A DNA stretch of 64,000 nucleotides, from positions 332,517-396,516 of the forward strand of contig DHXV01000001.1 in assembly GCA_002415345.1 (NCBI GenBank). Direction: 5' to 3'. A program made the position numbers and the translations under genes. Position 1 is the stretch's first letter. Each line of letters begins with the position of its first letter. Origin of the DNA: Patescibacteria group bacterium UBA5147 (GTDB lineage: Bacteria; Patescibacteriota; Saccharimonadia; UBA4664). Of this stretch, positions 1 through 16,325 are shown in pieces. The notes under the pieces are model-generated. The model saw only the letters and a program-made list of their open reading frames with translations, was not told the origin of the DNA and did no database searches.

Positions 1-2054
1 AGGCCTTTTTGGGTCATCTTGCCACTTGCGTCATAGGTGTCCGCGATGTCATATTTGGCGATTTCCGCATCGGTGAAGCCGTAGCGCTGAAGCTTATTGG
101 GGTTGGCATAACTGCTGGTATCGGCGTATACCGGATTAATGAGAGCCAGTAGATGGTTAGAAAAGACTTGGCGAATGTTGAAGAAGCTGCCGGAGAGAGA
201 GGCTATCGCTGATTGGGGGCTTGATGGCGATTGATCGATAAGGCGCGATATCATTGAGCGCGGATTTTCAGTTGAGAAGACATTAAAGTATATGCCCTTG
301 CCTCTGTCAGCGATGGCCTGCTCTTGGTCGGCGGCCATGGCGAGCGTGGTGTAAGCCTGGTCGGAAATTGGGGCGGACCCACTGGCCCGGCCGTAGTCGT
401 GGGCCATCATCTCCATGCCGGTGCCACTCATGGCAATCTGCTGGACGGCGTTCTCGGTACCGGTGATGGCAAGGCCTGAGGCGGAAGCCAAAACGGTTGG
501 TACTACTTTAATCATTAGGGCGGCCTGCAGGGTGAGCTTGGCGGCATTTGACGCAATGGCCTCGCTACCGCCGATGAAGATGTTGGCGACGAGTTCCACG
601 ATGGACAAGAACGTACCGAGCGGGCTTAGGATGAGACTACAAACCTTGTCACCCAGCCCGCCCGCCGCGCCGGTAATGGAGTTGATTGTTGCCATAATCG
701 TAGCGAGGCCGGTTTTGCCATCGGGGTTGGCGCCGGCGCTCAGCTCGACATCGCCAGAGGTCACTGGCTGGTTGGTCGCACGCTTCCAGTCGGCTGATTG
801 GGTGAAATCCTTGGTGTCGTCGGTGGGGATGGTTTTGCCGGTCTGCTGATCGACCGTGGTAGCCGCTGGATCACCGACGTATGTTTCCATGAGGTAATTA
901 AGGGTTTGCGGGTCAACCGTCTCGCCCTTGCGGAGTTGCGCGGCACTGGAGAGCAAAGCCCCGCCCGTACGCATGAGCTGCTTGGCGCGTATGTCGTAGC
1001 CATTAGCCAAGGCGTCGTTGGCCAGTTGTTGGATGGTACAGATGATAGCAACGATACCGATGGCGCCAGCGGTTTTGCTATTGAAGACTGACTTGGCCCC
1101 CTCCCTCAGGGCTAGTTTGATGTCGCCCGATTCGCCAAAGACCCGCTTGACGACGGAGGTCGACTCGTCAGCTGCTGCGGCCGCGGCTTTTACGTCGGCC
1201 GCGGTGGTTTCCGGCGTCGTACCTTTGGCAGCAGCAACCTCGGCGGCCGAGGCACCATTTTGAATTTTTTTGAAGCGGTCTTTTAGGTACTCGGCCGCCG
1301 TCTTGAATTTTTCGTTAGTGAAGAACTTGAACGATACGCCGTACCGGGCCGTCATGAGGCGGATTAATTTGACGCGTTGTCCGACGCGCCAAGGCGGGAC
1401 GTTTTCATTGACTACGGATGCAAGGCGCCCTAGCTTTTCGCCTTGGGGCAGCCCTTTGGTATTCTCGATGATGCCGTTGCGCTCGATTGAGACGAGTTCT
1501 TTAGATGCGGGGTCAAAATTTAACTTCACGCCTTTTTCAGCCAGGCTCGCTTCAAAACGATCTAAACTGAACGTCGCCCACTTGTTACCAAAGAAACCGC
1601 GGCCTTTGATCTTGTAGCGGCCATCCTTGTCGAACATGCTCAGGGAGCCGCGCATCAGTTTGGATGCCATACGTGCTTCCGTACGTTGATTCGGCTGGAA
1701 TATGTGATTAAACATGTTCTGCTCGATATGGAGCAGCTTTAGCGGCAGCAGGCTCGAGAAGCCAAACAAGGCGGCCGCAATGATGCCGATGATCCCACCG
1801 CCAGCTCCTAATTTCTTCTTATTGCCGGCAAGATATGAGGCGCCGGCTTTGGCGGCGTTCGCCAGCTGACTGAAGCGGCCGCCGTCTTGATCATTGCCTG
1901 CGCTGCCTGGGTTGGACCCTGAGGCGTTCTTGGGGTCGTTGGCAAAGGCTTCGGCCTGGTCGGTACCGCCGCCGACGTAGTCCTGGGTGGCCTTGTCCTG
2001 GGACGCCTGGTTCGTTTCGGCGTCCTTAACTAGCTGGTCACCCTCGGTTTCCAC
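1..2054 (-). CDS. Partial CDS (3' end beyond window), more than 680 aa. Bitopic membrane protein with about 65 aa cytoplasmic N-terminus, one TM (GIIGIIAAALFGFSSLLPL) and a large extracytoplasmic domain; T4SS-associated hypothetical.
   Basis: Hand translation of the minus strand from GTG at 2054 stays open to position 1, with the frame consistent at both ends. A GGAGG sits 9 nt upstream of the GTG, 2 nt after the virB4 stop. It is absent from the ORF track because no stop lies within the window. Confidence 0.55.
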   Translation of the reverse strand, partial: METEGDQLVKDAETNQASQDKATQDYVGGGTDQAEAFANDPKNASGSNPGSAGNDQDGGRFSQLANAAKAGASYLAGNKKKLGAGGGIIGIIAAALFGFSSLLPLKLLHIEQNMFNHIFQPNQRTEARMASKLMRGSLSMFDKDGRYKIKGRGFFGNKWATFSLDRFEASLAEKGVKLNFDPASKELVSIERNGIIENTKGLPQGEKLGRLASVVNENVPPWRVGQRVKLIRLMTARYGVSFKFFTNEKFKTAAEYLKDRFKKIQNGASAAEVAAAKGTTPETTAADVKAAAAAADESTSVVKRVFGESGDIKLALREGAKSVFNSKTAGAIGIVAIICTIQQLANDALANGYDIRAKQLMRTGGALLSSAAQLRKGETVDPQTLNYLMETYVGDPAATTVDQQTGKTIPTDDTKDFTQSADWKRATNQPVTSGDVELSAGANPDGKTGLATIMATINSITGAAGGLGDKVCSLILSPLGTFLSIVELVANIFIGGSEAIASNAAKLTLQAALMIKVVPTVLASASGLAITGTENAVQQIAMSGTGMEMMAHDYGRASGSAPISDQAYTTLAMAADQEQAIADRGKGIYFNVFSTENPRSMISRLIDQSPSSPQSAIASLSGSFFNIRQVFSNHLLALINPVYADTSSYANPNKLQRYGFTDAEIAKYDIADTYDASGKMTQKG

Positions 2055-2055
2055 G

Positions 2056-3948
2056 CTACGCTACCTCCCCGACTTCCTGGGCCGCGGCCGCGGCTTGCTC
2101 CTTGCGGGCGGCCTCAAGGGCCTTGGGGTCGGTGGAGATAAGCTGGGACTCGGTCTCGGAGGCCAGGATGCGGATGACGACGTGGTTGAGGCCGGCAAAG
2201 AACAGGCCCTCGCCCACAGGGAACTGGCTGAGGCGGTTCTTTTCCTCGCTGGTGAGCTTGAAGGTTTCGGCCACGATGTCGATGGCGCTCGGCGCCTGCT
2301 TGAGCAGCAGCTGAAGGGACGAGTTCGCCACCACGGCGCGGCCCATCTTGTTGCTCAGGAAGTCCTCGACGTCCTGGCTGATGGTTGTCAGGCCCAGGTA
2401 GTACTTACGGGCGCGCTTGGCCAGCGAGAACATGAAGGCGGCGGAGTCGTCGTACTTCATCAGCTGCCAGGCCTCGTCGATGATGAGGATGCGCTTGCGC
2501 TTGTCGCTTTTGACCTTGTTCCAGATGTAGTTGAGGACGATATACATCCCGACCGGGCGCAGTTCGTCTTCCAGGTCGCGGATGTTGAACACCAGGAAAG
2601 GGTTGTCGAGCTGGACGTTGGATTGTTCGCTGAAGATGCCGCTGAAGGTGCCGGTGGTGTACTTGCGCAGGCGCTGGGCCAGCGACGGGCCGTTGCCGGT
2701 CATTGAAGCCAACGTGTTGTAGAGGTCATTCATGGTGGGCGGCGTGGCGTTGTGGGTCAGAGGGTCCTTGGAGATACCGGCCCGGGCGTAGGTGTTGATG
2801 ATGGCCACGTCCATGTCGGCGTCCTCGGCCGGGGTCAGGGGCGAGGTCAGGGTGGCTCCGGTGGTTGAGTTGACCGTGGCGCCGCCCATCATCAGGCGCA
2901 GGAGGCCGTGGAGGGTAATGATGTTGGCCTGCAGGGCGTTGTCGGCCTCTTCCTGGTCGAAGACGCGGGGCAGGTCAAACGGGTTGATGCGGGTTTGGGA
3001 GGCCAGGCTCAGGCGCAGGTAGCTGCCGCCGACAGCGTCGCTCAGGGCGCGGTACTCGTTTTCCGGGTCGATAACGATGACCTCGACGCCCATCATCAGG
3101 CTGCGCAGGGCCTCTAATTTAATGGCGAAGGATTTACCGGCACCGGACTTGGCGAAGACCACCATGTTGGCGTTCTCCAAACTGAAGCGGTCGAACAACA
3201 CCAGGCCGTTGTTGTGGCGGTTGAGGCCGTAGAGGATGCCCTCGTTGCGGCTGAGTTCCGAGGAGGTGAAGGGGAAACTGGTGGAGAGGGCGCCGGTGTT
3301 CATGTTGCGGCTGATTTGCATCTGGTCGCTGGCCAGAGGTGTAGTGGTGTTAAAGCCCTGCTCCATCTGCAAGGTGGCCGGCTTGGTATAAATGAGCGAC
3401 TGGCCAAAGATGCCTTCGATCTTACGGCCGATCTGCGTGAGCTCGTCGATGCTGTTGGCGTACATCGTCAGGTACAGGCCGAAGCGGAAGAAGCGCTCCT
3501 CGCCCACCTGGAGCTTGTCGCGGAGTTCCTCGGCGTCTTGGATGGCCGCTTCCAATCCGGGGTCGCGGACACGGCCCTTTTCCTGGTTGATGGAATAAGA
3601 CGCCTCCAGTTGGCCGACCTTACGCTTAAGGTTATCAAGCACTACGCGGCTTTCGACCGGGTAGATGTAAAGGGAGATATCGATGATTTCGTCCAGGTTG
3701 ATGATGGGCGACAGCCAGCCGGTGAAGACTTGGCGGGGGTAACCGTAGACGTAGACGGTCTTGGCGTAACGCTTGCCAATGCGGATGTAGCCCGAATCCA
3801 CTTCAATTGAGGGCGGGGCGATGAGGTCGCGCATAGTGACTACGCCCTGACGGTAAATCAGCTCGGCTTCGCGCTGTTCGGCGGCGCGTTGTGACTCGGC
3901 CAGTGCACCCGGATCGATCTGTTCATTTTTTTTGCCAAATAGTGCCAT
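2056..3948 (-). CDS. virB4: Type IV secretion/conjugation ATPase, VirB4/TrbE/TraE family.
   Basis: Walker A FAKSGAGKS and Walker B RILIIDEAW (the DEAW is typical of VirB4). Size of 630 aa is typical of monoderm VirB4. The start overlaps the upstream stop in a TAATG. Confidence 0.85.
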   Translation of the reverse strand: MALFGKKNEQIDPGALAESQRAAEQREAELIYRQGVVTMRDLIAPPSIEVDSGYIRIGKRYAKTVYVYGYPRQVFTGWLSPIINLDEIIDISLYIYPVESRVVLDNLKRKVGQLEASYSINQEKGRVRDPGLEAAIQDAEELRDKLQVGEERFFRFGLYLTMYANSIDELTQIGRKIEGIFGQSLIYTKPATLQMEQGFNTTTPLASDQMQISRNMNTGALSTSFPFTSSELSRNEGILYGLNRHNNGLVLFDRFSLENANMVVFAKSGAGKSFAIKLEALRSLMMGVEVIVIDPENEYRALSDAVGGSYLRLSLASQTRINPFDLPRVFDQEEADNALQANIITLHGLLRLMMGGATVNSTTGATLTSPLTPAEDADMDVAIINTYARAGISKDPLTHNATPPTMNDLYNTLASMTGNGPSLAQRLRKYTTGTFSGIFSEQSNVQLDNPFLVFNIRDLEDELRPVGMYIVLNYIWNKVKSDKRKRILIIDEAWQLMKYDDSAAFMFSLAKRARKYYLGLTTISQDVEDFLSNKMGRAVVANSSLQLLLKQAPSAIDIVAETFKLTSEEKNRLSQFPVGEGLFFAGLNHVVIRILASETESQLISTDPKALEAARKEQAAAAAQEVGEVA

Positions 3949-4679
3949 TACAGTTTTGCTCCTGGGAGCGGCCGGTGCGGCGCGGCGCCCTCACCCTTTT
4001 CCACGACCGGTGTCATGAGCTGGGCGGTATCGATTAGTTTCTGGTTGACGGCCACGTCCGGGTTGTACCAGCCGTAGTAGAGGTCGATGAGTTCCTGGGT
4101 GCCGAGCGCGATGGCGCGGATGCCCATTTGGCTCATGCCGCTCGATACCAAGGCCACGCGTTGGGATAATTCCTGCTTGTAGTGCTTGAAGTCGTCCTCG
4201 GCCACAGTGATGACCGGCGTCGGTTGGAAGGCGGCCTTGAGTCCGGTGATGAGGCTGGCGCTCTTCTTGACGTTGACCGGCGGGAAGAACGGCACCACCA
4301 CGTAGAACTGCTTGTCCATGATGTTGACCTCCTCCACCAGGGCGCGGATGTTGGCGATGTAGTCTTCCATGAGGAGGCCCAACAGGTCGTTGGATTGCTG
4401 GGTGCGCAGGCCCACCAGCTTCTCAATGTAGTTGTCGAGGTCGATTTTCTGGCTCTTGATGACGATTTGGACCGGGAAGTGCAGCGAGTTCAAAAATCCC
4501 TGGTAGGCGAACTCGACGCCGTCCTGTTCCTGGGGGCTCATGAGGTCAAAGTTTATGGCACTGCCCAATACCACGGCGCGCATGCTGCCGTCTTTCATCA
4601 GCACCACACCGTCCTTGATCTCGGTGATCAGGAGCGTGTTCTGGGTACTCTTACTGGTCTTATTTACTGCTTGAGCCAT
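3948..4679 (-). CDS. Hypothetical soluble protein, translationally coupled to virB4 (TAATG overlap).
   Basis: 243-aa ORF with no TM or recognisable motif. Its position inside the T4SS block suggests an accessory role. Confidence 0.5.
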   Translation of the reverse strand: MAQAVNKTSKSTQNTLLITEIKDGVVLMKDGSMRAVVLGSAINFDLMSPQEQDGVEFAYQGFLNSLHFPVQIVIKSQKIDLDNYIEKLVGLRTQQSNDLLGLLMEDYIANIRALVEEVNIMDKQFYVVVPFFPPVNVKKSASLITGLKAAFQPTPVITVAEDDFKHYKQELSQRVALVSSGMSQMGIRAIALGTQELIDLYYGWYNPDVAVNQKLIDTAQLMTPVVEKGEGAAPHRPLPGAKL

Positions 4680-5520
4680 TGCTTCGTAATTCCACCGACT
4701 GACCTTCTTGTAACGGCGTAATGCGCGTGGCGGTTGCCGCCAGTTGCGACACCGTAAGGTCGTCTCTCTCCGTTGCTAATTTAAGTATATCGTTCGGGTT
4801 GGCTGTTGTCACGCTTGTGCTTATCTGCCGATTGTCGGCAACCTTGGGGGCCGGGCGACCGGTCATCTGGTCGATGGCTTCCTGGCGGATATCCACGGCG
4901 GCCTCCTGGATGAGCGAGGCCAGATTCTGCGCCAGAGGACTTTGCTGCAGGTCGAGCATATCGGGGGCCTGGGTTTCGTCGGCGACGTGCGGGGAGGTTT
5001 GGGCAGGTTCCACCAGTCGGTCGGAAACCACGTTCGGCTGGATGATCAGCGCGTCGGAAGCCGCCGAGGGCGGTGCGTTCCAGCCGCGCGAATCGATCAT
5101 GGTCCCGAGCCGCTCCAGCTCGCTGCGAACCTCCCTGGGGTTGCGCTGCGTCTGCTCCACCACCACGGCGTTGGGTTGGATGCGGAAGGAATCCACAACC
5201 TCGTCCTTGCGCCATAACCGTTGCCGCGACTGGGAGAAGTACCCCACCATGGCAATGAGCAATTGCTCAAAGTTCTGGCCGTCGCGCTGATAGAACGCCA
5301 GCAGGAGGAACAAAATGGTGACGGGCGCCGCCATGATAATCATCAACGGAACGACAGCGTGGAGCAGGGCATAACTTAACCCCGCCCACGTCACGCCGAT
5401 GATGGCGTAGATAAACTGCTTGAGCGTCAACGGCCCAAGAATATGGTCTTCGGCCTCAACGTTCTGCGGCACTTTATACTGGCTCATACCCTCTTGCTCC
5501 CTCATTCCACGCCCGCTCAC
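4660..5520 (-). CDS. Membrane protein with two adjacent N-proximal TM helices, possibly VirB3/PrgI-like, and a long C-terminal soluble region.
   Basis: Hydrophobic hairpin FIYAIIGVTWAGLSYALLHAVVPLMIIMAAPVTILFLLLAFY immediately upstream of the virB4 partner gene, the conserved VirB3-VirB4 order. Overlaps the downstream ORF by 20 nt. Assignment by architecture only. Confidence 0.4.
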   Translation of the reverse strand: MSGRGMREQEGMSQYKVPQNVEAEDHILGPLTLKQFIYAIIGVTWAGLSYALLHAVVPLMIIMAAPVTILFLLLAFYQRDGQNFEQLLIAMVGYFSQSRQRLWRKDEVVDSFRIQPNAVVVEQTQRNPREVRSELERLGTMIDSRGWNAPPSAASDALIIQPNVVSDRLVEPAQTSPHVADETQAPDMLDLQQSPLAQNLASLIQEAAVDIRQEAIDQMTGRPAPKVADNRQISTSVTTANPNDILKLATERDDLTVSQLAATATRITPLQEGQSVELRSNGSSSK

Positions 5521-5620
5521 TTTAATAGCGGAACATACTTGAGCTTATTATCGCCTACTTACTATCACCTATCAAGCAATGGGTCATCGTACACCCGGAC
5601 CGGCGGACGTTCAAGCCCAG

Positions 5621-8600
5621 CTAGTTGATGCTGCGGTCGTCGCCTGGTTCATTGGTTTGGTCGCGCGGAGCGAGACGGAGCGACGTACTCGGGCCGTTCG
5701 TTCGACTGCCAGGAGTGGTCGGCAAGATAATGGTCCCGTAGTCGGGGCGCCCGCCGGATTGCTTCAACCTTTCGGAAAGTGTAAAACTGGGTCGCTCCGA
5801 CGTTACATTCGGGATGTCAGTAACTGATGAACCTTGGTTGGGCGCAGTTCGCCACGTCATGGTTGCCGGCGGACTCATCGTAGTCGGCGCAGGTTCGGGT
5901 GTGCCTCCGCCAGGTACGTTAATAGTCACGTTAGTATCATAGGCATTGCTCGACGAAGGATTATGGTTGGGCAGGATCAAATTAGGATTTGGATTAACGC
6001 TAGTAGTAGGAATAACCAGGCCGTTTGGCTGGGTTGACCAACCGCCCGAGACGCCGCTTCTGGCTTGGGCAGCATTGGGATTGGGGCTGGTATTTTGATT
6101 GTAAGGAATGTTTTGGGTCGGCGCAGGGCCTGCAGAGACACCCGATGGAGCCGAGCTGGCCGCGGGTGCACTACCCCCAGCACTTGTCCCTGATCCGCCT
6201 CCACTCGGGGTACTCCCGCTAGGTCCAGAGCCGCCACCCACTGGTCCGGATCCTGTGACCGCACCGCCGGCCCTTTGGGCCGCTAGTAAATTGGCTTTCT
6301 CAACCGGGGTATGAACGCTTACTCCGATATCTGTGCCAAGTTGGTTCAGGGTATCTCGGGTATCATTGTTGATATTGTTAACGCCGGTCGTTGATCCGTT
6401 GATACCGACTACTACGTTTCGCATATTCTCATCAAAGGCATCCAGCTGCTGTTTTGCTGCAACTTCGCCCGTACTTCCGATAGCGGATACGTGCGCAGCC
6501 TTCAATGCGTTGCGACGGTTGACCATAGCTTGTGCGCCGACGTTATCAAGCCGGACGCCTTTCTCGGCCTTGATATTATCGTAAGCAGCTGCACCTCCGG
6601 GAGAGACTAAATGGGGTGCCTTTTCTTTTAGGCCGGAAAAATTCCCCGCCGTTGCCTTAATCCACTCGGAATTAGTCGTGTCGTTGCCATATTTATTGGC
6701 TAGGACGGTCTGTAGTTTTCCGGTATCTTCAATCGCCGCCAGCTTAGCCGTAGCAGCCCGGCTTGTGAACTGACTTGATTTGGTATCTAACGCCTTAGCT
6801 AACAGTGTCGACGGATTATCATTCTCTAGCAGGCGACCGGCCGCTGTCAGCTGATCTTTATCATTCTTTTCAAGAGCTCCTGCCATACGGTTAGGATCGA
6901 TTTTGTCGATACTCAGACCCGCCTGTTGTTGGGCTAATTTACGCTGGGTCCCCTGCTTTAAACGACCAAAACCGGTAGTTGCGGGACCCGCCTGATTTAA
7001 GGAATTGATTTTGGAAAGTCCCTTCTGCTGGCGGTTGTAAGCCCGGTTCTGTTTCATCTTGTCCTGCGCCCCGGAGATGGCGCTGTGGCCACGTTTGGCA
7101 TGGCCACTAATAAAGCCATGGCCCATCATCAAGGCGCTACCGGCAAATTTGAACGTTGCCGGAATAAGGAACAAGGCAATGATTGGCGCTAGGGCAGAAC
7201 CGAGCTTAGTCCAGTTTGAGGCATCCCCCGAACCTGTAATGACGACACTGAAGAATTTGGATGTCGCAAGCAATAGGACAATAATCGGGTACATTAGCAG
7301 CAGCTTGACAAGGGTTTCGCGCCACATCTTGAAGTACTTGTCGGTATTGGGCAGGACCCAAAGTAGAAAGGCTATCGGAGCTATAATAATCAGGAAGTCT
7401 ATGAGCATGATGCGAATCTGAAGAGTAATAAAGACCGCTATCAAACCAATAATAGCTGCGGCCAGGGCTAGTAAAAGCGGTATGGCAAACTCCGCGAGGA
7501 ATGGCGCGAAAGTCGCTGCCGCAACACCCGCACCAACACCCGCGCCGACTAATTCAACGGCGCCCGCGATTTGCATAACCCCTTCATTACCGGTTTTTAC
7601 CCCTCCGGGGATTGCTGCGGCCATGAGACTGTCGATACCCATACCCAGCACATTAGAGATGTCCACCATGAAGCCTACCAAAAGGTAGGAGAATTGAACG
7701 AGAACGGCTGCCGCTATGAGGCGGGGAAGGATTTTTTTGACCGTGTAATTATCGAGACCCATACTGGTGCCAAAAATAACAATAAAGAATATAAGCACAA
7801 AAAAGACGTCCGCTAGATTCCTAAACACAGCCCAGGCAGGCTTTAGGCCTGTGTCGCCAGACGCTAGGGGCGTGAACTTCAGTTGGTTCTTGACGACGCC
7901 GGTAAGATTGTTAACTGCACCTTGGGCTATGCTAATGACCGGACATAACAACCAGGTAAGACTGTCGACGGAGCAGACGGCTTGGACCTCGCTGGGTGTT
8001 GGATCTGTTGTCGGAGCAGCAGGAGCGTTGTTCTGACTGAGATTTAATGTATTTGACCCGGCCGCCAATACTACGCCGGGTTTGGTAATTTTTACGGGGA
8101 AGGAGGCCAGTCCTGGGCCTTCGCTGTACGCGCCATCAATAGTGACAGTGTAAGTTCCGGGCTTCAAATTTCCGAGAGTAAAACTGCCATTTGTGTTCAA
8201 GGGGACTTTTTGGGTTCCGCTCGGCCCGCCGGAGACGGTAAGGTAACCCGAGGTTACCGGCATGTCTTTTTTTAGGCCCTGGTCAAAAAAAGTGGCGGTG
8301 CCGGAGAGCGTTGCGGTCTTGGCTACGGCTGCCAGTGTCTTAACAGGTATCGTAACCTGGTCTAATTTGCCACCGACCGTACATAGATTCCGGCTGGGTC
8401 CACCGAGAAGCGTACCCCAGGTAAGAGAACTGGTGGGTGAACCCGTTCGGTCGGAAACTGAGACATTAAATAGGACGGTGTTATCGCATCCGCCGGAACT
8501 GCTTACCTGAGTGTTGTTTATCGGGCCGGATTTCCAGGTCTTCGACTTGGCATCATAGGTTAAGTTGACGGTTACGGGTTGTTCATTTGTGTCGCGTCGC

Positions 8601-8779
8601 GTGGCGATAACGGCAACATTGCTTGTCATGTTTGGAGTAAGGGTAACCTCTACTCCTCCGCGTCCCTGAGGATCTCCGGTGGTCGCCTGCGCCTGCGCTG
8701 GAAGTGCGGCAAATAAGTTACCTATAGACAATAAGCCTGTAGCCACCACCAACAACATTCGAGATAGTCTTTGCACCAT
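5621..8779 (-). CDS. VirB6/TrbL-like polytopic membrane protein (1052 aa) with signal peptide, a roughly 300-aa extracellular N-domain and a roughly 280-aa Ser/Gly/Pro/Asn-rich disordered C-terminal tail.
   Basis: Multi-TM core (FFVLIFFIVIFG...ILPRLIAAAVLVQFSYLLVGFMVDISNVLGMGI...) is paralogous to the core of 10157-12769. A LKPGTYTVTI Ig/CarbopepD_reg-like segment lies in the N-domain. The tail is low complexity (GSGPVGGGSGPSGSTPSGGGSG..., NPNPN). Confidence 0.6.
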   Translation of the reverse strand: MVQRLSRMLLVVATGLLSIGNLFAALPAQAQATTGDPQGRGGVEVTLTPNMTSNVAVIATRRDTNEQPVTVNLTYDAKSKTWKSGPINNTQVSSSGGCDNTVLFNVSVSDRTGSPTSSLTWGTLLGGPSRNLCTVGGKLDQVTIPVKTLAAVAKTATLSGTATFFDQGLKKDMPVTSGYLTVSGGPSGTQKVPLNTNGSFTLGNLKPGTYTVTIDGAYSEGPGLASFPVKITKPGVVLAAGSNTLNLSQNNAPAAPTTDPTPSEVQAVCSVDSLTWLLCPVISIAQGAVNNLTGVVKNQLKFTPLASGDTGLKPAWAVFRNLADVFFVLIFFIVIFGTSMGLDNYTVKKILPRLIAAAVLVQFSYLLVGFMVDISNVLGMGIDSLMAAAIPGGVKTGNEGVMQIAGAVELVGAGVGAGVAAATFAPFLAEFAIPLLLALAAAIIGLIAVFITLQIRIMLIDFLIIIAPIAFLLWVLPNTDKYFKMWRETLVKLLLMYPIIVLLLATSKFFSVVITGSGDASNWTKLGSALAPIIALFLIPATFKFAGSALMMGHGFISGHAKRGHSAISGAQDKMKQNRAYNRQQKGLSKINSLNQAGPATTGFGRLKQGTQRKLAQQQAGLSIDKIDPNRMAGALEKNDKDQLTAAGRLLENDNPSTLLAKALDTKSSQFTSRAATAKLAAIEDTGKLQTVLANKYGNDTTNSEWIKATAGNFSGLKEKAPHLVSPGGAAAYDNIKAEKGVRLDNVGAQAMVNRRNALKAAHVSAIGSTGEVAAKQQLDAFDENMRNVVVGINGSTTGVNNINNDTRDTLNQLGTDIGVSVHTPVEKANLLAAQRAGGAVTGSGPVGGGSGPSGSTPSGGGSGTSAGGSAPAASSAPSGVSAGPAPTQNIPYNQNTSPNPNAAQARSGVSGGWSTQPNGLVIPTTSVNPNPNLILPNHNPSSSNAYDTNVTINVPGGGTPEPAPTTMSPPATMTWRTAPNQGSSVTDIPNVTSERPSFTLSERLKQSGGRPDYGTIILPTTPGSRTNGPSTSLRLAPRDQTNEPGDDRSIN

Positions 8780-8891
8780 AATAAACTAACTTTAGCATTA
8801 GCGTTATGTATACGTAAATGCGCAAATAAAAAACACCCAGATGTGACACTCGAAAGAGTGTCACATCTGGGCTTATTTCTACGGGACGCGA

Positions 8892-9995
8892 TCAGTGTGA
8901 ATTCGCCCACAAGTTGGTATATCCGCCGGGGTCCGGCGAACTGAACCAGTTGTACATGAGCGAACGGGAGATGGTTTTGCCACCCCTCTGCTCGGTAGCC
9001 TCAACGGTTATTGTGCCCGGGTGGGCAGGCCCCGTTGATTTGAGCAAAGTTGACGTGAAGCCCGTTGGAACCTTGCCAGCCTTGAGGTCGGCAATTTCCT
9101 GGATTTCGACGGGATTGTCGCCCATTTCTCCGGGGTAGTAGAACCGAAGGAGGCCCTCGCTCTTTTGGATGAAAGCCTGCTGGCGCATACCCTCAAGCCG
9201 GGCGACGACCTTGGCCGGGTCGTCCTGAACCGATTGTCCGGTTTCAACCTGGGCGAACGAGGAGTTCGCCATGAACGCGGGCGCACCAACGATGAGCCAG
9301 TGCGTGCCTTCCAGACGGACGAGAACGGGACCCCATGACTTGGGGTCGCCTCCATTCGTGAACGAAAGCGACAGGTCGTACCAGCGGCTGGTCGAACCGG
9401 CTGCTGCCTGAGGGTCCGAAACGACAGTCGGTTCATTGGTCAGTGAGACGATTCCGCACAAGGCGGGCGACTGCTGACCGTACTGGACGTACCAGAATGA
9501 CTTCATCTCCTGCATGAACCCCCACAGGTAGTGAGGGTTAAGAGTAGACTTGCCGCCGTGACCGCACGATGCGGACCACGCGATGTTGAAACCTCCGAGG
9601 ATTTTGTCGATTCGATCGGTCGCCGCGCCCTTTATCGGAGGAAACTCCGGGAGGGCGTCAGCCGTCTTGAGGCGCTGGGCCAAAGGCACCCGTGCATCGG
9701 CAATACTGCCGACAAACGCCTTTGGGGTCGCAGGTACGTGTGCCGGAGCGACAGGCGCGTTGCCGGAGTTGCCGGTAAGAGGAGCCCTTACTGCCGGGTC
9801 GCTGAAGATGTTTGCAGATCCGGCGTTGTCCTGATTCACGGCGTTGATGAGGGAGGTTGCGAACCACGCCGCGCCAATGACCAGAAGAACCAGGGCAATC
9901 CAGACGACTCGCATGACCTTCTTCTTGGTGCTGGTCGGCTGCGGCTGGATTGAGGGAGTCTCGGTGACCCCATCAGTGTGACGTGTGGTAGTCAT
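8892..9995 (-). CDS. Bitopic protein (27-aa cytoplasmic N-terminus, one TM, about 310-aa extracytoplasmic domain); candidate VirB8/TcpC-like T4SS component.
   Basis: The topology matches VirB8-like proteins and it lies between the two VirB6 paralogs. No sequence motif was recognised. Confidence 0.4.
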   Translation of the reverse strand: MTTTRHTDGVTETPSIQPQPTSTKKKVMRVVWIALVLLVIGAAWFATSLINAVNQDNAGSANIFSDPAVRAPLTGNSGNAPVAPAHVPATPKAFVGSIADARVPLAQRLKTADALPEFPPIKGAATDRIDKILGGFNIAWSASCGHGGKSTLNPHYLWGFMQEMKSFWYVQYGQQSPALCGIVSLTNEPTVVSDPQAAAGSTSRWYDLSLSFTNGGDPKSWGPVLVRLEGTHWLIVGAPAFMANSSFAQVETGQSVQDDPAKVVARLEGMRQQAFIQKSEGLLRFYYPGEMGDNPVEIQEIADLKAGKVPTGFTSTLLKSTGPAHPGTITVEATEQRGGKTISRSLMYNWFSSPDPGGYTNLWANSH

Positions 9996-10078
9996 GAGCT
10001 TCCCCTTCCGGGAAAAAGAACTTGGATGTCAAATTCCGCGGAGTGCGGAACTGCCTACGGTTGATGCCGTTATATCAG

Positions 10079-10108
10079 TTTATACAGCATAACCGGTAAA
10101 ATGTCAAT
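10079..10108 (-). promoter_or_regulatory. Sigma70-like promoter (TTGACA-N18-TGnTATAAA, extended -10) for the 8892-9995 gene. The 5' UTR contains a TTCCGC-N5-GCGGAA hairpin.
   Basis: Read on the minus strand. A GGAAGG RBS precedes the ATG at 9995. Confidence 0.45.
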
Positions 10109-10156
10109 GCTTACCTCTCGAAGTACTCCTTGATCGGTCCGGCTGCACCCAACATA

Positions 10157-12769
10157 TTATGAGGTAGGTGGCGGCGTGGTATTGCGCCCGATATTCTTCA
10201 ACCGGGCAGCCTCCTGCTTTGTCACCCAATTGCTAGCATCTGAATTGAGCTTGAGAGTACTGGTTGCGGGGTTATACTTGCGGCCCTGCATCAACTCATA
10301 GGCTACCCATGCCTTGGTTGTCGTCGATAGATTATCGAGCAAGGTAGCCGGTACGCCGGCTTCGCGGGCAAGCTCGTGGGTTATATCTGAGTCGCGGTGG
10401 AAGTCGGCTGTGAGAGCCTCATATTTATCGCGTCCCACTTGCGTTGCGGTGATGGCAGCCCGCTGGGATGCAAAGGCTCGGGCCATTTTGAGGCGGTGTT
10501 CAACCGGGGCCATGTTGCGACCCGTAACGTCAAATGCACCGGTAATTGAACGCTGAGGCAAGCTGGCTGCCACACGCTCGGCGCTTTCCCTGGACACGCG
10601 TTTTTCAAGTTCGGTGGCATCCGGCTCCTGGCCTTTGAGGATAACGCCCCAGTTGTCGGTGGAAAACTTGTCGCCCAGGGTGTTGGCGGTGGTCTTGCGG
10701 AGCTGCTTATCGATTGAGGTCCAATCCAGGTCGCCGCGTTCGCGCTTCATTACCAATTCAACTTCATTGCCGCTGGAGTCGATGACCTTCATGGGCTGTC
10801 CTGCCGCATCCTTAGGGGTATATTTATCTTTGGCTTCTGTCATGCGCATCGTGGAAAACGGGTTGGAGGAGCGACTCTTGCCGACTTCACTCATCAATGC
10901 GGCGTATTCGGACGCGGGATCGCGACTGACGCTCGTGGGGTTAGAGAGCCTACCGGCCTTTAAGACGTTGTTGACATCGTTGTCGGTTAGGAAACCCTTG
11001 TCGCTGAGGCGGCTGAGTATCGCCCGGCGTCCGGTTTGGTTGGAGCCTATTTGTGCCAGGTTGGGTACGGTACGGTTCAGATCGTCAATCCTTCCCCTAC
11101 GTTTGGCTGCGTCCGGTTCGGCGTAGGCGGCCAAAACATCTTGCATGTTCTTTGGGCTCTGAGCCTCGGTCAGGTCATCAAGTAATTTGCCGTCCGACTT
11201 TACCAGCTGTGCATTTCTCTTATCCAGTGCGCGCTTGCTGGTTGGCCCGCCTGCCAGCATGCCGCCGCCGAAGCCGACCATCGCCGCCCCGGCGACTCCG
11301 CGCTTTAATTTATTACCGCTCGAGAGTGAGGTTATCGGCTTTGAATTCATGAAGTTTTCCATATGCTGGTTCTTACGCTTTTTGCGCTCATCAACCCCGC
11401 GCTGCCAGAAATCGCTGCTCTTGAGGGCGCCTTTTCCGCGTTGGGCGTGGCCGTTCATCAGATCGTAGGCCCGGGTGAGGCCCTTTCCGGCTAGTTTGAA
11501 CGTCACAGGAATAATCAGGAAGGCCGCAATGACCACTATGGGTTTGATCAGGTTTCCGGCCATACCGGCGCCAACACTGTCGGCGGTTGAACTGCCAGCT
11601 GGCAGGATTGAGTTGACGAGGCCGGCCAGAGAAATTACGCCGACGATAATCGGATACATTAAGACGAGCCGAAATAACAGCTCCATCCAGTCCTTGGCCC
11701 AGTGGCGCGTGTTGGGCAGAACCCAGGCAACCATGGCCAAAGGTGAAACCACGATGAGAATGGCGATGAGCAGGAAGCGCAGGCCCAACACCAGGAAGAC
11801 GACCAGGAGCGAAATGGCCATGCTCGCCAGGAGCGGCGCGATTGCTACCCACGACGCGGCACCTAGAACAGCGCCAAGCGCCAGGGCGCCGGCCAGACCT
11901 ATTCCAACCAGGTTAGTCAGGACGTGGGCAAAGCTGGCGTCGCTTTGCGGCCCGGTAGCCGCTCTCAGCAGGTCTTCAATCCCCGCCCCCATGACGTTGC
12001 CGATATCCACCATGAACCCGACAAGCAGGAATGAAGCTTGGACTAAGATCGCCGCTACCACGAGCCGCGGCAGGACCTTTTTGATGGTGTATTGATCGAA
12101 GTAGCCGATATCCTGCTGGGTGATGGTCGCAAAAATAATAACCAGGAAAACCAGCAGGAACATAATCTCTGCCAGATTGACCATTTTGAGCCAGATATCG
12201 TATAGCTCGGGCGTGGACTGTTGATTGATGGCCTTCACCCGAAGGAGCGGTATCAGGACGCCGTTCGCGAGCTTAGTGATGGCGCCGGTAGCGTTGTCGA
12301 TGAACGGACACATGAGCCAGGACATGCTGCCCTGGTCGCACGAGGCGGCGGCCGCCTGCTGGTCGGCCGTGGTGGTACCGTCCGCTTTGGCCACGGCAAT
12401 AGCGAGGTCAAAGGCGGCACAGGATGCCTCGGACGGAACAGTCAGGTTCGCCAGGGTCGGATAAATCTTTTTGAAGTCGGCATTGCTGACGTCAAGGGAG
12501 ACTTTGGAGGTTTTTGCGGCCCCGCTGCATGTGTAGGAGACGTCGCCCGTGAAGGTCGCCGCGGAGGTAGCGGCGGTCTTCTTGAGGGTTCCGCTGACCT
12601 GGCCACTGCCCCCGGCTACCGTCACAGATTGGTTGGTATCGTCGGCCCAGGCGTATGTTTCCCCCGCCGCGTGCGCGGGCTGAGCTATCAAGGTCAGCGC
12701 GGCTATTGCGACTGCCGCCAAAAACGCGCGGCTAAAGTGTAGTTTTAAGATAGATATAAGGTAAAACAC
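10157..12769 (-). CDS. VirB6/TrbL-like polytopic membrane protein paralog (870 aa) with signal peptide, Cys-containing extracellular N-domain and about 420-aa hydrophilic C-terminal domain.
   Basis: TM core MFLLVFLVIIFAT...TIKKVLPRLVVAAILVQASFLLVGFMVDIGNVMGAGIEDLL closely parallels the 5621-8779 core. A shared pre-TM motif (SMSWLMCPFI versus SLTWLLCPVI) is present. Confidence 0.6.
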   Translation of the reverse strand: MFYLISILKLHFSRAFLAAVAIAALTLIAQPAHAAGETYAWADDTNQSVTVAGGSGQVSGTLKKTAATSAATFTGDVSYTCSGAAKTSKVSLDVSNADFKKIYPTLANLTVPSEASCAAFDLAIAVAKADGTTTADQQAAAASCDQGSMSWLMCPFIDNATGAITKLANGVLIPLLRVKAINQQSTPELYDIWLKMVNLAEIMFLLVFLVIIFATITQQDIGYFDQYTIKKVLPRLVVAAILVQASFLLVGFMVDIGNVMGAGIEDLLRAATGPQSDASFAHVLTNLVGIGLAGALALGAVLGAASWVAIAPLLASMAISLLVVFLVLGLRFLLIAILIVVSPLAMVAWVLPNTRHWAKDWMELLFRLVLMYPIIVGVISLAGLVNSILPAGSSTADSVGAGMAGNLIKPIVVIAAFLIIPVTFKLAGKGLTRAYDLMNGHAQRGKGALKSSDFWQRGVDERKKRKNQHMENFMNSKPITSLSSGNKLKRGVAGAAMVGFGGGMLAGGPTSKRALDKRNAQLVKSDGKLLDDLTEAQSPKNMQDVLAAYAEPDAAKRRGRIDDLNRTVPNLAQIGSNQTGRRAILSRLSDKGFLTDNDVNNVLKAGRLSNPTSVSRDPASEYAALMSEVGKSRSSNPFSTMRMTEAKDKYTPKDAAGQPMKVIDSSGNEVELVMKRERGDLDWTSIDKQLRKTTANTLGDKFSTDNWGVILKGQEPDATELEKRVSRESAERVAASLPQRSITGAFDVTGRNMAPVEHRLKMARAFASQRAAITATQVGRDKYEALTADFHRDSDITHELAREAGVPATLLDNLSTTTKAWVAYELMQGRKYNPATSTLKLNSDASNWVTKQEAARLKNIGRNTTPPPTS

Positions 12770-12814
12770 AATATACCAACGTAACAGGATTTGACTGTTT
12801 TGTCAAAAGCTGTT

Positions 12815-12843
12815 TTGACTTATTGTTTCCGCTTGGCTATGAT
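12815..12843 (+). promoter_or_regulatory. Promoter TTGACT-N17-TATGAT. The -10 ends 6 nt before the ATG at 12850, implying a leaderless or near-leaderless pilin transcript.
   Basis: Hexamers read directly. Divergent from the VirB6 paralog gene. Confidence 0.5.
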
Positions 12844-12849
12844 TTGGCC

Positions 12850-13281
12850 ATGAAGCGCATATTTCTCGCAATCTGGATAGCTCTCGTTTTGGCTGCCGCG
12901 GCAATGCCAGTCAGCTATGAGTTAACCAGCGGCCGAATGACAGTCGTCTCTTCTATGGCCCTCGCAGCATGTCCTGACGGTCAAGTTGAATTGAGTGTCA
13001 AAGTTAATAGCACCGATAGCGGATGCGTTAAGCCTGATCCTAATGGCGGGGTAATCATTACTTATCTCAAGACGATCTTGAAGTTCTTGAGCGGGGGCGT
13101 CGGCATTGTCATTTTGCTTATGCTCACCATAGCGGGCGTCCAATACATGACCGCTGTCGGCCAACCCGAGCAGGTGAAGGCTGCCAAGACCCGGATCCAG
13201 AACGCCCTCACCGGCTTGGTGCTGTTCCTTATTGCCTTCGCCGTCCTTAACTTAATCATCCCCGGGAGTATCTTCGGCTAA
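12850..13281 (+). CDS. VirB2/TrbC-like T4SS pilin paralog 1 (the ORF track starts at TTG 12823; the ATG at 12850 gives a clean signal peptide MKRIFLAIWIALVLAAAAMP).
   Basis: Signal peptide, a variable region with a Cys pair (AACPDG...DSGCVKPD), then two C-terminal hydrophobic helices separated by a short polar loop (VGQPEQVKAAKTR). Confidence 0.5.
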   Translation: MKRIFLAIWIALVLAAAAMPVSYELTSGRMTVVSSMALAACPDGQVELSVKVNSTDSGCVKPDPNGGVIITYLKTILKFLSGGVGIVILLMLTIAGVQYMTAVGQPEQVKAAKTRIQNALTGLVLFLIAFAVLNLIIPGSIFG

Positions 13282-13625
13282 TGTTTGCTTTAAGCTTCTT
13301 TAAACTGGCCGCCGCCTGCACGACGACCACCAAAGGCGGAATCGCTCCGGGGTTGTATGATAACTTGTGCTCGAACGGCACAGATATGTTTTCCAGCTTG
13401 ACTGACATCTGGATCGTCGTCGCCAACGTCATCCGTATCCTGGTGGCGCTCGGCGGGGCGCTGGCGGTTATTTTCATCATCGTCGGCGGCCTGTTCTACG
13501 TCGTATCATCGGGAGATCCCGGCCGCATCAAGCGGGCCAAGGACATACTCAAGGAATCGATTATCGGTCTGATTATTACATTGATAGCGTATTCGGCTAT
13601 AACGTTTATAGCGGCGCAGTTTTAG
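13281..13625 (+). CDS. VirB2/TrbC-like pilin paralog 2.
   Basis: TAATG overlap with paralog 1. N-terminal region has a Cys pair, followed by IIVGGLFYVVSSGDPGRIKRAKDILKESIIGLIITLIAYSAITFIAAQF. Confidence 0.5.
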   Translation: MFALSFFKLAAACTTTTKGGIAPGLYDNLCSNGTDMFSSLTDIWIVVANVIRILVALGGALAVIFIIVGGLFYVVSSGDPGRIKRAKDILKESIIGLIITLIAYSAITFIAAQF

Positions 13626-13627
13626 CG

Positions 13628-13936
13628 ATGATGAACTTACAGCACCTTTATTCCGTCGTCGCCCCCATTTCGGTTAAGGCCGATGAAATCGGGCTTCCTC
13701 ACTCCACAGAAACCGTCGGCGGGGCACTGAACGTCGCTGTAAAAATCCTGATCTTCCTGATCGGGATGCTGTCGGTGGTAATGATTATCGTCGGCGGAAT
13801 TAAGATTGTCGTTTCAAATGGCGACCCGGGTCGGTATAAATCGGGACGGGACACCATAACCTACGCTATAGTTGGTCTGATTCTATCCTTGGTAGCCTAC
13901 TCGATAGTAATTTTCATCGCCAGTAACGTTAAATAG
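13628..13936 (+). CDS. VirB2/TrbC-like pilin paralog 3.
   Basis: MIIVGGIKIVVSNGDPGRYKSGRDTITYAIVGLILSLVAYSIVIFIASNVK. No Cys pair and a weak N-terminal hydrophobic region. Confidence 0.45.
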   Translation: MMNLQHLYSVVAPISVKADEIGLPHSTETVGGALNVAVKILIFLIGMLSVVMIIVGGIKIVVSNGDPGRYKSGRDTITYAIVGLILSLVAYSIVIFIASNVK

Positions 13937-13947
13937 AAGGATTCATC

Positions 13948-14256
13948 ATGCCTGCCACTTTTTTGGCCAATGCCAGCGACATTATTAAACAATCAGCGGA
14001 TCTGGCATGTAAGACCGACTGTAACACCAGGGGCCTCCCGCTCATCATCCAGTCGGTAACTACTGCACTCCTGGGAGTCATCGGGGCGCTGGCGGTAATC
14101 ATGATTATCGTCGGCGGTCTTCGGTATGTCACCTCCGGAGGCGACCCGAAGAAAACGGCCGATGCTAAAAATACCATAATGTACTCTATCGCCGGCGTCG
14201 TGGTGGCGATTATGGCTTATGCGATAGTGAAGTTTATCATCGCCTCGGTAAAATAG
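13948..14256 (+). CDS. VirB2/TrbC-like pilin paralog 4.
   Basis: RBS AAGGAT. Cys pair CKTDC, followed by IMIIVGGLRYVTSGGDPKKTADAKNTIMYSIAGVVVAIMAYAIVKFIIASVK. Confidence 0.5.
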   Translation: MPATFLANASDIIKQSADLACKTDCNTRGLPLIIQSVTTALLGVIGALAVIMIIVGGLRYVTSGGDPKKTADAKNTIMYSIAGVVVAIMAYAIVKFIIASVK

Positions 14257-14334: not shown

Positions 14335-14754
14335 ATGAGAATCGCAATCCTCGGCAAGAAAATTGCCTTAACCATGCAGGCAGTCGCCATCGGCCTGGGC
14401 TTTAGCGCCTTCAGCCTGGCTGCCGTAACAGTTGTCCCGTCAACTGCCCTAGCCGCAGACTGTTCCACTCTCAATATTTCAAACGGAGCCGACTGTGCCG
14501 CCCCGACTGGTGCCAAACCCACATTGTTCGGTGAAGGCAGCATCTTCAACACCGTTGCCAACACCCTGATCTTCCTGGTCGGCGCCATTGCCGTCCTGTT
14601 CCTGATTATCGGCGGTCTCCGCTACGTCGTATCCAACGGCGAGGCCAAGAACGTTGAAGCAGCCAAGAACACCATTCTCTATGCCATCATCGGTATCGTC
14701 GTGGCGATCCTGGCCTATGCGGCCGTCAAGTTCGTCATCACGTCCCTGGCCTAG
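14335..14754 (+). CDS. VirB2/TrbC-like pilin paralog 5 (clear signal peptide).
   Basis: RBS AAGGAG. Cys pair CSTLNISNGADC, followed by FLIIGGLRYVVSNGEAKNVEAAKNTILYAIIGIVVAILAYAAVKFVITSLA. Confidence 0.5.
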   Translation: MRIAILGKKIALTMQAVAIGLGFSAFSLAAVTVVPSTALAADCSTLNISNGADCAAPTGAKPTLFGEGSIFNTVANTLIFLVGAIAVLFLIIGGLRYVVSNGEAKNVEAAKNTILYAIIGIVVAILAYAAVKFVITSLA

Positions 14755-14862
14755 TCCCGACTCAAATAAATAGGCTCAACCAAGCCGCAAAGAGCGCCTC
14801 CCAGGAGGCGCTCTTTAGTTGCTTGTGACTTCCATGAATCGGATTAACCAATCCGCTGGCAA

Positions 14863-14897
14863 TAAAAAATAGCCCCTATCGGCAGGGGCTATTTTTT
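14863..14897. terminator. Bidirectional rho-independent terminator (AAAAAAT-AGCCCCTATCGGCAGGGGCT-ATTTTTT) between the pilin array and hsp20.
   Basis: Perfect 8-bp stem flanked by an A-run and a T-run. Confidence 0.8.
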
Positions 14898-14929
14898 AGA
14901 TTTGCATTAGGCCCGAACGGTGGTCGTAA

Positions 14930-15373
14930 CTAGACGACCGGCTTGACCTTGATCTTCTTGACCTTGTCCTGAGCAACCTTGGGGATGCTGATGGTGAGGA
15001 CGCCGTCCTTGAGGCTGGCGGCAGCCTTCTCGGCGATGGTTGAGGTGGGCAGGATGACGCTGCGGCTGAATGAGCCCCAGTAGCATTCCTGGACGTAGTA
15101 GTGCTCGCGGTCGACTTCTTTGTCTTCGATACGCTCACCGCGGATGGTGACGACGTCTTCGGCGACTTCGATATCAATCTTGTCCGGAGTCACGCCGGCG
15201 ATAGGCGCCTTGATGATGACGTTCTCTTTGGTCTGGTAAACGTCGACGGCCAGCTGGCCTTCTTCGGCTTCGGCCATCCAATCCTCTTCGCCTTCAATGG
15301 GCGTATCGAGGAAATCGTCCTGCAGGACGTTGTTGTCTTCTTCTAACTGGGGAGCGTTTTTTTTGCCCGACAT
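14930..15373 (-). CDS. Small heat-shock protein, Hsp20/alpha-crystallin family.
   Basis: Alpha-crystallin domain pattern (VDVYQTKENVIIKAPIAGV...LKDGVLTISIPKV). Confidence 0.85.
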   Translation of the reverse strand: MSGKKNAPQLEEDNNVLQDDFLDTPIEGEEDWMAEAEEGQLAVDVYQTKENVIIKAPIAGVTPDKIDIEVAEDVVTIRGERIEDKEVDREHYYVQECYWGSFSRSVILPTSTIAEKAAASLKDGVLTISIPKVAQDKVKKIKVKPVV

Positions 15374-15517
15374 TGCTTGGTGATCTCCACATTAATAACT
15401 AAGGACGAAGTCTTGAACGGCTTCGGATTTTTTGCCCACACTTTTTGTCATTTGCATTTATGAGCGTGTTTTACCTATTATAGTCAAATCTTCAGCTAGA
15501 ACGCAAGGAACCGCTTC

Positions 15518-16180
15518 ATGCTCGTACAAAAACTCATCGAACTGCTGGCTCCGGCATACTGCGTCGGCTGCACTAAAGAGGGTGATTGGCTCTGCCGTAA
15601 CTGCCAGACCGCCAGCGTAATCGTGCCGGCCCCAGCCTGCTACCGGTGTGAAAAGCTGACATTGAACGGCGACACCTGCACCGGCTGCCGCGAGGTCGGC
15701 GGGCTGACGCGGGTTACCTCGGCCGCGGTTTATGGCGGGCCGGTGAAGGAACTGATCCGCGTCCTAAAATTCAAGCGTGGACGGTCGGCGGCGGGTGTGG
15801 CTGCCAGGTTAATTTTACAACACCTGCCCGCGGTCGCTGACTTCGACCTGGTTACGGCCGTACCGATTTCGCCGTCGCGCTACCGGGAGCGCGGCTATAA
15901 CCAGAGTGAACTCATTGCTAAAATTATCGCCAGTCAGGTTGGCGTGCCTTATCGTTCTGCGCTCATGCGTTCGACCTCAGTTCACCAGATCGGCCGCAGC
16001 CGCAGTGAGCGGCTGGCCGCCATCCGTGGCAGCTTCCAGGCGATCCGCCCGGTGGACGGCCGACGAATCCTCGTCATCGACGACGTACTGACCACAGGAG
16101 CCACCCTGGCCGAATGTGCGGCCGTACTGTCGGCCGCCGGCGCCAGCAGCGTCCAGGGAGCCACAGTGGCCCGCCGCTAG
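15518..16180 (+). CDS. comF: ComF family protein (phosphoribosyltransferase-type, ComFC-like).
   Basis: N-terminal 4-Cys zinc finger (CVGC...CRNC...CYRC...CTGC) and a PRTase motif ILVIDDVLTTGATL. Confidence 0.75.
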   Translation: MLVQKLIELLAPAYCVGCTKEGDWLCRNCQTASVIVPAPACYRCEKLTLNGDTCTGCREVGGLTRVTSAAVYGGPVKELIRVLKFKRGRSAAGVAARLILQHLPAVADFDLVTAVPISPSRYRERGYNQSELIAKIIASQVGVPYRSALMRSTSVHQIGRSRSERLAAIRGSFQAIRPVDGRRILVIDDVLTTGATLAECAAVLSAAGASSVQGATVARR

Positions 16181-16232
16181 GTCTTGAGTCCCCGCCCCGC
16201 TCGCGGTATCATGTGTGAGTTCGACAAGGCAA

Positions 16233-16325
16233 GGAGAGGTACCCAAGTGGCTGAAGGGGCGGGTTTGCTAAACCTGTAGGGGGAAGTAATTCCCCGCGAG
16301 AGTTCGAATCTCTCTCTCTCCGCCA
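16233..16325 (+). tRNA. tRNA-Ser (anticodon GCT), class II long variable arm, CCA encoded.
   Basis: Hand-folded cloverleaf. T-arm GGTTCGAATCC. Anticodon loop TTGCTAA. Confidence 0.8.

Follow-up and report, generated by a model that had tools for sequence, protein, structure and literature searches.

The left end of a 64,000-nucleotide stretch from the genome of Patescibacteria group bacterium UBA5147, a member of the Saccharimonadia (contig DHXV01000001.1, positions 332,517 to 396,516, forward strand; the whole stretch is referred to below as the window), carries the genes of a type IV secretion system (T4SS). With a probability that we put at roughly 0.85, this locus is a vertically inherited, origin-proximal chromosomal T4SS of the Saccharimonadia, orthologous to the T4SS of Southlakia epibionticum ML1, belonging to the Patescibacteria clade derived from the mating-pair-formation class MPF_FATA, and acting as a conduit at the interface with a host. 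Exactly this system is already described in the literature and the locus adds no new kind to it. The T4SS of Saccharibacteria, however, counts among the small number of machines with a demonstrated essential role in epibiotic life, and the locus provides a clean and complete example from an uncultured, high-GC member of the Saccharimonadia.

Seven consecutive genes on the minus strand and an array of five pilin genes on the plus strand make up the part of the system that lies within the window. They are listed here with one terminator-like element, lengths being given in amino acids (aa):

1-2054, minus strand: membrane protein of 1006 aa with a C-terminal M23 peptidase, of which the window holds the first 684 codons
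2056-3948, minus strand: VirB4 ATPase of the Gram-positive (MPF_FATA / CD1110) type, 630 aa that make up its C-terminal two thirds, by NF045971
3948-4679, minus strand: TrsD/TraC-like protein, 243 aa, the VirB4 N-terminal domain as a separate gene, by matches to TrsD and VirB4 models
4660-5520, minus strand: PrgI family (VirB3-like) membrane protein, 286 aa, with a C-terminal extension of ~180 aa, by PF12666
5621-8779, minus strand: extended VirB6-like protein (B6a), 1052 aa, by precomputed PF19590 TrbL_3 and a core paralogous to B6b
8835-8872, minus strand: terminator-like hairpin, 17-bp perfect stem and 4-nt loop, then GTTTTTTATT; a match to the consensus only
8892-9995, minus strand: bitopic membrane protein, 367 aa, of a rare family, with one N-terminal transmembrane helix, between the VirB6 paralogues
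10157-12769, minus strand: extended VirB6-like protein (B6b), 870 aa, by paralogy to B6a and by homologues with PF19590
12823-13281, plus strand: VirB2-like T4SS pilin 1, PF18895 31 bits (cutoff 26.6), two C-terminal hydrophobic helices
13281-13625, plus strand: VirB2-like T4SS pilin 2, PF18895 36 bits
13628-13936, plus strand: VirB2-like T4SS pilin 3, PF18895 37.5 bits
13948-14256, plus strand: VirB2-like T4SS pilin 4, PF18895 57 bits and PF04956 TrbC/VirB2 28.6 bits (cutoff 27.9)
14335-14754, plus strand: VirB2-like T4SS pilin 5, PF18895 38.1 bits

The ATPase and its immediate neighbours carry the identification. The 630-aa protein, which an initial annotation made from the letters of the window had called VirB4, scored 354.4 bits against the NCBIfam model NF045971 conju_CD1110 (cutoff 325), so that the call is now backed by a significant profile match, and 90 bits against P-loop_TraG. 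Its nearest solved structure was 4AG5, the C-domain of a Thermoanaerobacter VirB4 (4AG5/4AG6, E 2.1e-46), and the Walker A (GAGKS) and Walker B (LIIDEAW) motifs are both readable in the translation. The 243-aa protein had been proposed as a VirB8, but no transmembrane segment was predicted in it, and it matched TrsD and the N-terminal domains of VirB4 instead: the NCBIfam TrsD model NF041427 at E 5e-7, which is far under the curated cutoff of 200 bits, and the N-terminal positions of three VirB4 models (98-233 of 894, 7-118 of 752, and 18-135 of 792). Public annotation of the identical gene lists a precomputed match to PF26593 TraC-like. As the 630-aa protein covers the rest of the same three models, VirB4 is split over two genes at this locus. 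The candidate for a VirB3-like protein was found to belong to the PrgI family, with 56.5 bits against PF12666 (cutoff 27) over residues 16-101 and two adjacent hydrophobic helices predicted.

The seven co-directional genes lie where the initial annotation had placed them, and the listing of open reading frames (ORFs) bears out their coordinates; the limits of 1-12769 that it gave to the block were nevertheless too narrow, with five pilin genes lying to the right and two or three co-directional genes to the left of the window. The leftmost gene had been predicted as a frame of more than 680 codons absent from the ORF track. Re-translation from 2054 down to 1 gave 684 open codons and no stop, and the gene is absent from the list because its frame runs off the window edge. 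An exact look-up of the VirB4 protein recovered three public metagenome contigs (L001-L003) that are 100% identical to the window over 1-13948, and the leftward extension that the initial annotation had called for could be made on these: the gene is complete there at 1006 aa, its last 322 codons lying left of the window. It is followed by a gene for a protein with a CHAP domain and by one for an exported Ig-like (Big_5) protein. Beyond the Ig-like gene, on the opposite strand, are dciA, recF, dnaN and dnaA, the start of dnaA being ~6.4 kb left of the window edge and ~8.5 kb from the virB4 stop. To the right of the pilin array lie genes for an Hsp20 protein and a ComF-type phosphoribosyltransferase (15518-16180), and then a tRNA-Ser gene.

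Junctions within the block had been described as overlaps of 1-20 nt, an account that fits two of them, PrgI/TrsD (20 nt) and TrsD/VirB4 (1 nt). A single nucleotide lies between VirB4 and the edge gene, and the remaining three junctions are gaps of ~100-160 nt. The hairpin at 8835-8872 sits between the 367-aa gene and B6a and has a T-run on both strands. Because of these gaps, and of the hairpin with its T-run on the coding strand at 8872-8835, the block probably comprises at least two transcription units, and the position of the hairpin suggests that the genes for the 870-aa and 367-aa proteins may form a unit of their own. The pilin array is transcribed divergently from B6b. All five of its genes show the two-helix layout of pilins, their products share 25-52% pairwise identity, and terminator-like hairpins follow pilin 5 at 14789-14816 and 14863-14898.

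The closest described counterpart is that of S. epibionticum ML1, with which the locus was compared by annotation and gene order (Tables S1 and S2, PMC10633639), not by alignment. Genes SEML1_0006-0019 of that species form a T4SS that is essential by transposon sequencing (Tn-seq), essential pilins included, and no coupling protein or relaxase is recognisable in it (Wang et al. 2023, PMC10633639); the importance of T4SS genes for the epibiotic growth of Saccharibacteria, which the initial annotation had stated, is thus documented for ML1. The published order in ML1 runs from recF through 0004, an Ig-like exported protein (0005), a lysozyme/cysteine-proteinase (0006), a 1114-aa protein with a C-terminal peptidase (0007), VirB4 (0008), 0009, PrgI (0010), a 999-aa T4SS protein (0011), a 279-aa NTF2-like protein (0012) and a 1089-aa TrbL/VirB6 (0013), to six pilins (0014-0019), Hsp20, ComFC and tRNA-Ser (PMC10633639). 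Gene order and orientation across SEML1_0005-0019 are the same as those found here from recF to tRNA-Ser. Both loci have a split TrsD and VirB4, a PrgI, two VirB6-like giants of ~900-1100 aa flanking a small gene, a giant that ends in a peptidase, with a hydrolase and an Ig-like protein after it, a divergent pilin array with Hsp20 and ComF neighbours, and dnaA nearby, and in neither is there a relaxase or type IV coupling protein (T4CP) close by. The two loci also differ: the pilins number five here and six in ML1; the peptidase of the giant is M23 here and of a DD-peptidase/M15 fold in ML1; in the second hydrolase only CHAP is detectable here, against two lysozyme-like domains and a cysteine proteinase in ML1; and the protein in the slot between the giants is here a 367-aa member of a rare family in which no similarity to other occupants of the slot could be detected. 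The Hsp20, ComF-type and tRNA-Ser genes of the window (14930-16325) follow the same order as SEML1_0020-0022.

Relatives were collected with a VirB4 scan of one genome per species, which found at least 561, and synteny was counted in the best 80 loci. These are labelled almost only as Saccharibacteria/Saccharimonadia, with a top VirB4 identity of 89%. Of the 80, 78 have TrsD, 65 have PrgI and 54 have a VirB6-like core; pilin arrays were found in ~32, Hsp20 in 21 and ComF in 17, the linkage of Hsp20 and ComF to the T4SS being conserved in 17-21 related loci. The chromosomal setting also recurs, with dnaN at a distance of 10 kb or less in 48 of the 80 loci, and dnaA and recF in 43 each. The same picture emerges from a survey of T4SS in Patescibacteria, in which TrsD, PrgI and VirB6 were abundant, hydrolases contained M23 domains, pilin arrays had 2-11 genes, relaxases were lacking and dnaA was close by, and in which the VirB4 clade was related to MPF_FATA (Quinonero-Coronel et al. 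2025, PMC12102498). A 2025 review repeats these features and discusses 'extended VirB6' proteins (PMC12857230).

The two giants had been named VirB6/TrbL proteins by the initial annotation, and this stands as far as their shared core and the TrbL_3 and TrbL matches of their family are concerned (their own local scores are weighed further below). PF19590 TrbL_3 is precomputed for a public copy of the B6a gene and is carried by 16 of 25 homologues of B6b; in the alignment of this family (A2), five of the 25 members match PF04610 TrbL (best E 1.3e-5). The polytopic cores of B6a and B6b are 36% identical over 359 aa (E 8e-53), with no similarity elsewhere; the tails of the two proteins differ, and so do the heads, as had been proposed. 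B6a, which is 1052 aa by the longest ORF and 1045 or 1002 aa in public gene calls, consists of a signal peptide, a beta-rich head of ~235 aa, a polytopic core at ~266-575, a helical region, and a final ~230 aa of low complexity, rich in S, P, G, T and N. In B6b, a signal peptide and a small beta head precede a polytopic core at ~144-460 and an all-helical tail at ~510-860. Disordered tails had been expected on both, but only the last ~230 aa of B6a are of low complexity: in an AlphaFold2 (AF2) model of B6b, the mean predicted local distance difference test score (pLDDT) was 69.8, and the tail, residues 510-860, was confidently folded as helices at pLDDT 85-95. The giants of ~1000 aa in ML1, annotated as T4SS and TrbL/VirB6 proteins, have ARM-repeat-like tails (PMC10633639, supplementary tables). 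In both proteins of the window a K/R-rich stretch trails the last membrane helix, and on this account the positive-inside rule would probably place the heads outside and the tails in the cytoplasm.

The presence of two such paralogues was first thought unusual. However, ML1 has the same layout of giant, small gene and giant, and two VirB6-like cores occur in 16 of the 54 related loci with VirB6, eight of these 16 having a gene for 230-330 aa between the two giants. As the VirB6 of single-copy loci is closer to the B6a type in 37 of 38 cases, B6a is probably the ancestral copy and the 870-aa type the extra paralogue. The B6a gene has a third-position GC of 0.54, well below that of its neighbours and of housekeeping genes (0.66-0.85), and overall GC is lowest in the pilin array, at 0.52. 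Selection that is relaxed or of another kind, or exchange with relatives of lower GC, could account for these values.

The edge gene, once completed, scored 97 bits against Peptidase_M23 over residues 881-972. Solved M23 structures matched this domain down to E 1.5e-22, and the zinc-ligand motifs HxxxD and HxH are present as HPGDD and HVH. Homologues of its N-terminal 840 aa lie directly downstream of virB4 in 57 of the 80 related loci. The giants encoded after virB4 form a conserved family, whose peptidase domain has been swapped between lineages.

Much less can be said of the 367-aa protein between the giants. It matched no Pfam or NCBIfam family, and its family profile found nothing among PDB sequences or in Pfam. 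Three homologues were found among 5.8e9 proteins and 26 in a HMMER scan of 1.84e9 representatives, ~8 of which cover the globular part. One homologue (P0030) occupies the same slot in two loci (L091 and L092), after a TrbL_3 giant and a pilin array; two others (P0002 and P0003) are in unrelated contexts, one of them beside a defence island. An AF2 model built on a four-sequence alignment was unusable (pLDDT 38), and hhalign comparisons with eight or nine slot proteins of related loci revealed no homology except for the N-terminal membrane segment in one (L008). Because of these results the protein can be called a positional analogue, by slot alone, of the NTF2-like (VirB8-like) SEML1_0012, a protein of 279 aa (ECOD e4ec6D1) flagged as non-essential (PMC10633639). 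Occupants of the slot differ, being NTF2-like, and flagged non-essential, in S. epibionticum and a member of a rare family here. That the slot is a replaceable cassette for unrelated bitopic proteins with a fast turnover, and that its protein, with the VirB6 heads, the pilins and the giant hydrolase, sets the host range instead of belonging to the core machinery, is a possibility that we consider rather doubtful.

Horizontal acquisition of the 367-aa gene came into view through homologues located in other contexts on contigs with a GC of 0.62 and was set aside, its own GC of 0.596 being within the range of its neighbours. Many of the matches to the family profile (among P0034-P0052) cover only the N-terminal ~110 residues, a module consisting of a membrane anchor with an 'RYW' motif, most of which is missing from the protein of the window. 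These module-only matches bear other C-terminal domains, in one case SecD/SecDF head domains, and the genomic contexts of two of them (P0034 and P0035) were uninformative.

Comparison with the closest species (L006) revealed a marked gradient of divergence. VirB4 is 89% identical and TrsD 79%, while DnaA, DnaN and RecF are at 76-77%, PrgI at 60%, the pilins at 44-60%, the VirB6 giants at 32-35% and the M23 giant at 22%; for the slot protein there was no match. The motor VirB4 is more conserved than the replication proteins, and the envelope-exposed parts evolve much faster, the divergence of the VirB6 heads, pilin paralogues and giant hydrolase being ~3 times that of housekeeping genes. Such a gradient would be compatible with a role in host contact, although it falls short of proof. 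Together with the paralogous giants, the folded tail and the conserved family of M23 giants, the fast-evolving surface parts offer a guide for mutagenesis in tractable species.

Among better-known systems, the MPF_FATA type (pCF10 PrgH-PrgI-PrgJ-PrgK-PrgL, pGO1 Trs, and C. difficile CTn2 CD1110) shows the same order of VirB6, VirB3 (PrgI), VirB4 and cell-wall hydrolase, and likewise has no outer-membrane core components; a TrsD-like protein is shared with pGO1. LytM/M23- and CHAP-type hydrolases are present in PrgK, as at this locus. The VirB6 proteins differ greatly in size, with 870-1052 aa here against about 300 aa in MPF_FATA (PMC12857230). Unlike the Gram-positive systems, the locus has VirB2-like pilins; relaxase, coupling protein and adhesin are all missing from it, and it is chromosomal and origin-proximal, whereas MPF_FATA systems are found on mobile elements. 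Tandem extended VirB6 paralogues with large hydrophilic extensions are also a feature of the rvh T4SS of Rickettsiales, obligate host-associated bacteria with reduced genomes in which the system serves host interaction rather than conjugation, although rvh, with its VirB7-11 and VirD4, is of the diderm MPF_T type. The likeness to the present locus is drawn at the VirB6 core only, and lies in adjacent VirB6 paralogues with large extensions in a host-associated organism with a reduced genome. The tandem, divergent pilins resemble the VirB2 arrays of Bartonella and Anaplasma, a parallel drawn in PMC12102498, but these are diderm pathogens of eukaryotic cells in which pilin variation is tied to immune evasion.

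The initial annotation had described the module as conjugative-type and as lacking a relaxase and coupling protein. The latter was upheld, as neither was found in the 64-kb window or in the 8-kb left flank. Outside the block, the scan of the window covered 30 long ORFs (209-952 aa), for which the family matches were all to housekeeping proteins (ValRS, GroEL, DnaG, PolA, sigma-70, Mur ligase, and others), eight being without a family at the threshold applied. 'Conjugative-type' is appropriate by ancestry and probably not by function: because there is neither a relaxase nor a coupling protein, the system is probably not used for conjugation, and is likelier to be a contact-dependent conduit at the epibiont-host interface. 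In such a conduit, the split VirB4, PrgI and the VirB6 proteins would form a translocon in the monoderm membrane, the hydrolases would open peptidoglycan, either the cell's own or that of the host, and the pilins would assemble into a short pilus or tube that reaches for the host bacterium. The substrate may be an exported protein, an effector or a hydrolase, and one may speculate that the VirB6 tails serve as docking platforms that stand in for the missing coupling protein. We lean slightly towards the export of proteins over the import of host molecules, with import a close second.

Several points weigh against this interpretation. The role of the system is read from sequence, and the literature settles neither the direction of transport nor the substrate; the pilus, too, is predicted from pilin homology only. 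VirD4-like genes are far from virB4 in many Patescibacteria (PMC12102498), and a coupling protein could lie elsewhere in the genome, beyond the 72 kb inspected. The naming of B6a and B6b as VirB6 proteins depends on the precomputed TrbL_3 hits and on other family members, since in the local Pfam scan neither giant matched TrbL/VirB6 significantly (E about 6). A profile of the VirB6-like family had no relevant match among PDB sequences, and a Foldseek search of the PDB with the B6b model returned only non-significant matches to alpha-solenoids.

Of the alternatives, the reverse direction of transport is the one that survives best, and we regard it as possible, if tentative. The pilus or tube would then tap the host and bring its nucleic acids or metabolites into the epibiont. 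A review has speculated that the T4SS and its pilus are a conduit for uptake from the host (PMC12857230), a 2026 preprint describes tubular structures that may be T4SS pili at the contact zone between a host and a parasite feeding on its RNA, and the T4SS is essential in an organism unable to make nucleotides or amino acids (PMC10633639). However, bulk import of nutrients is known for no T4SS, no experiment ties these pili to uptake, and sequence cannot discriminate import from export.

A second alternative is a T4SS for DNA uptake, like the ComB competence system of Helicobacter, acting together with the adjacent ComF-like gene. The ComF-type gene at 15518-16180 is indeed a conserved neighbour, in 17 loci and in ML1, and ComB-type systems, too, are not known to have a relaxase or T4CP. 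Against this, competence in S. epibionticum relies on comEC and type IV pili, and deletion of comEC stops transformation yet leaves the cells viable, whereas the T4SS is essential (PMC12857230); the ComFC homologue of ML1, SEML1_0021, is moreover listed as non-essential (PMC10633639). Because of the comEC result in particular, a function in DNA uptake is very unlikely. The weakest proposal, that the block serves an integrated conjugative element as its mating-pair-formation module and moves DNA, can call on a VirB4 family named after a Clostridioides conjugative transposon (CD1110), on PrgI and TrsD as families of conjugation systems, and on a tRNA-Ser gene ~3.5 kb from the block, but is rejected because neither the window nor its 8-kb left flank holds a relaxase, a coupling protein or an integrase, the nearby tRNA-Ser has no att-like repeat, the GC composition resembles that of housekeeping genes, and the position between recF/dnaN/dnaA and Hsp20-ComF-tRNA-Ser is shared with a distant cultured species and dozens of metagenome-assembled genomes.

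Some features of the remainder of the window may be recorded briefly. It has four tRNA-Ser genes (anticodons gct, tga, cga, and gga), located in 16233-20009 and at 44180-44267, three of which lie, with a tRNA-Arg gene, within 4 kb of one another. Between two of the tRNA-Ser genes, ~3.6 kb from the T4SS block, is an ORF of 842 aa (16369-18897, minus strand) with no membrane segment and, at thresholds up to E 1, no match to Pfam. Read at full length it would overlap tRNA-Ser(tga) by 28 nt, and its true start therefore probably lies further in. In the C-terminal part, the sequences 'IIHGHANPDG' and 'LQACSTAG' are reminiscent of a caspase-like His/Cys dyad. Further to the right are two genes of the FemAB family (peptidoglycan interpeptide bridge), at 25192-26181 and 27020-28060, which together with genes for a Mur ligase (28215-29552) and GlmM (30427-31773) make up a small cell-wall synthesis cluster.

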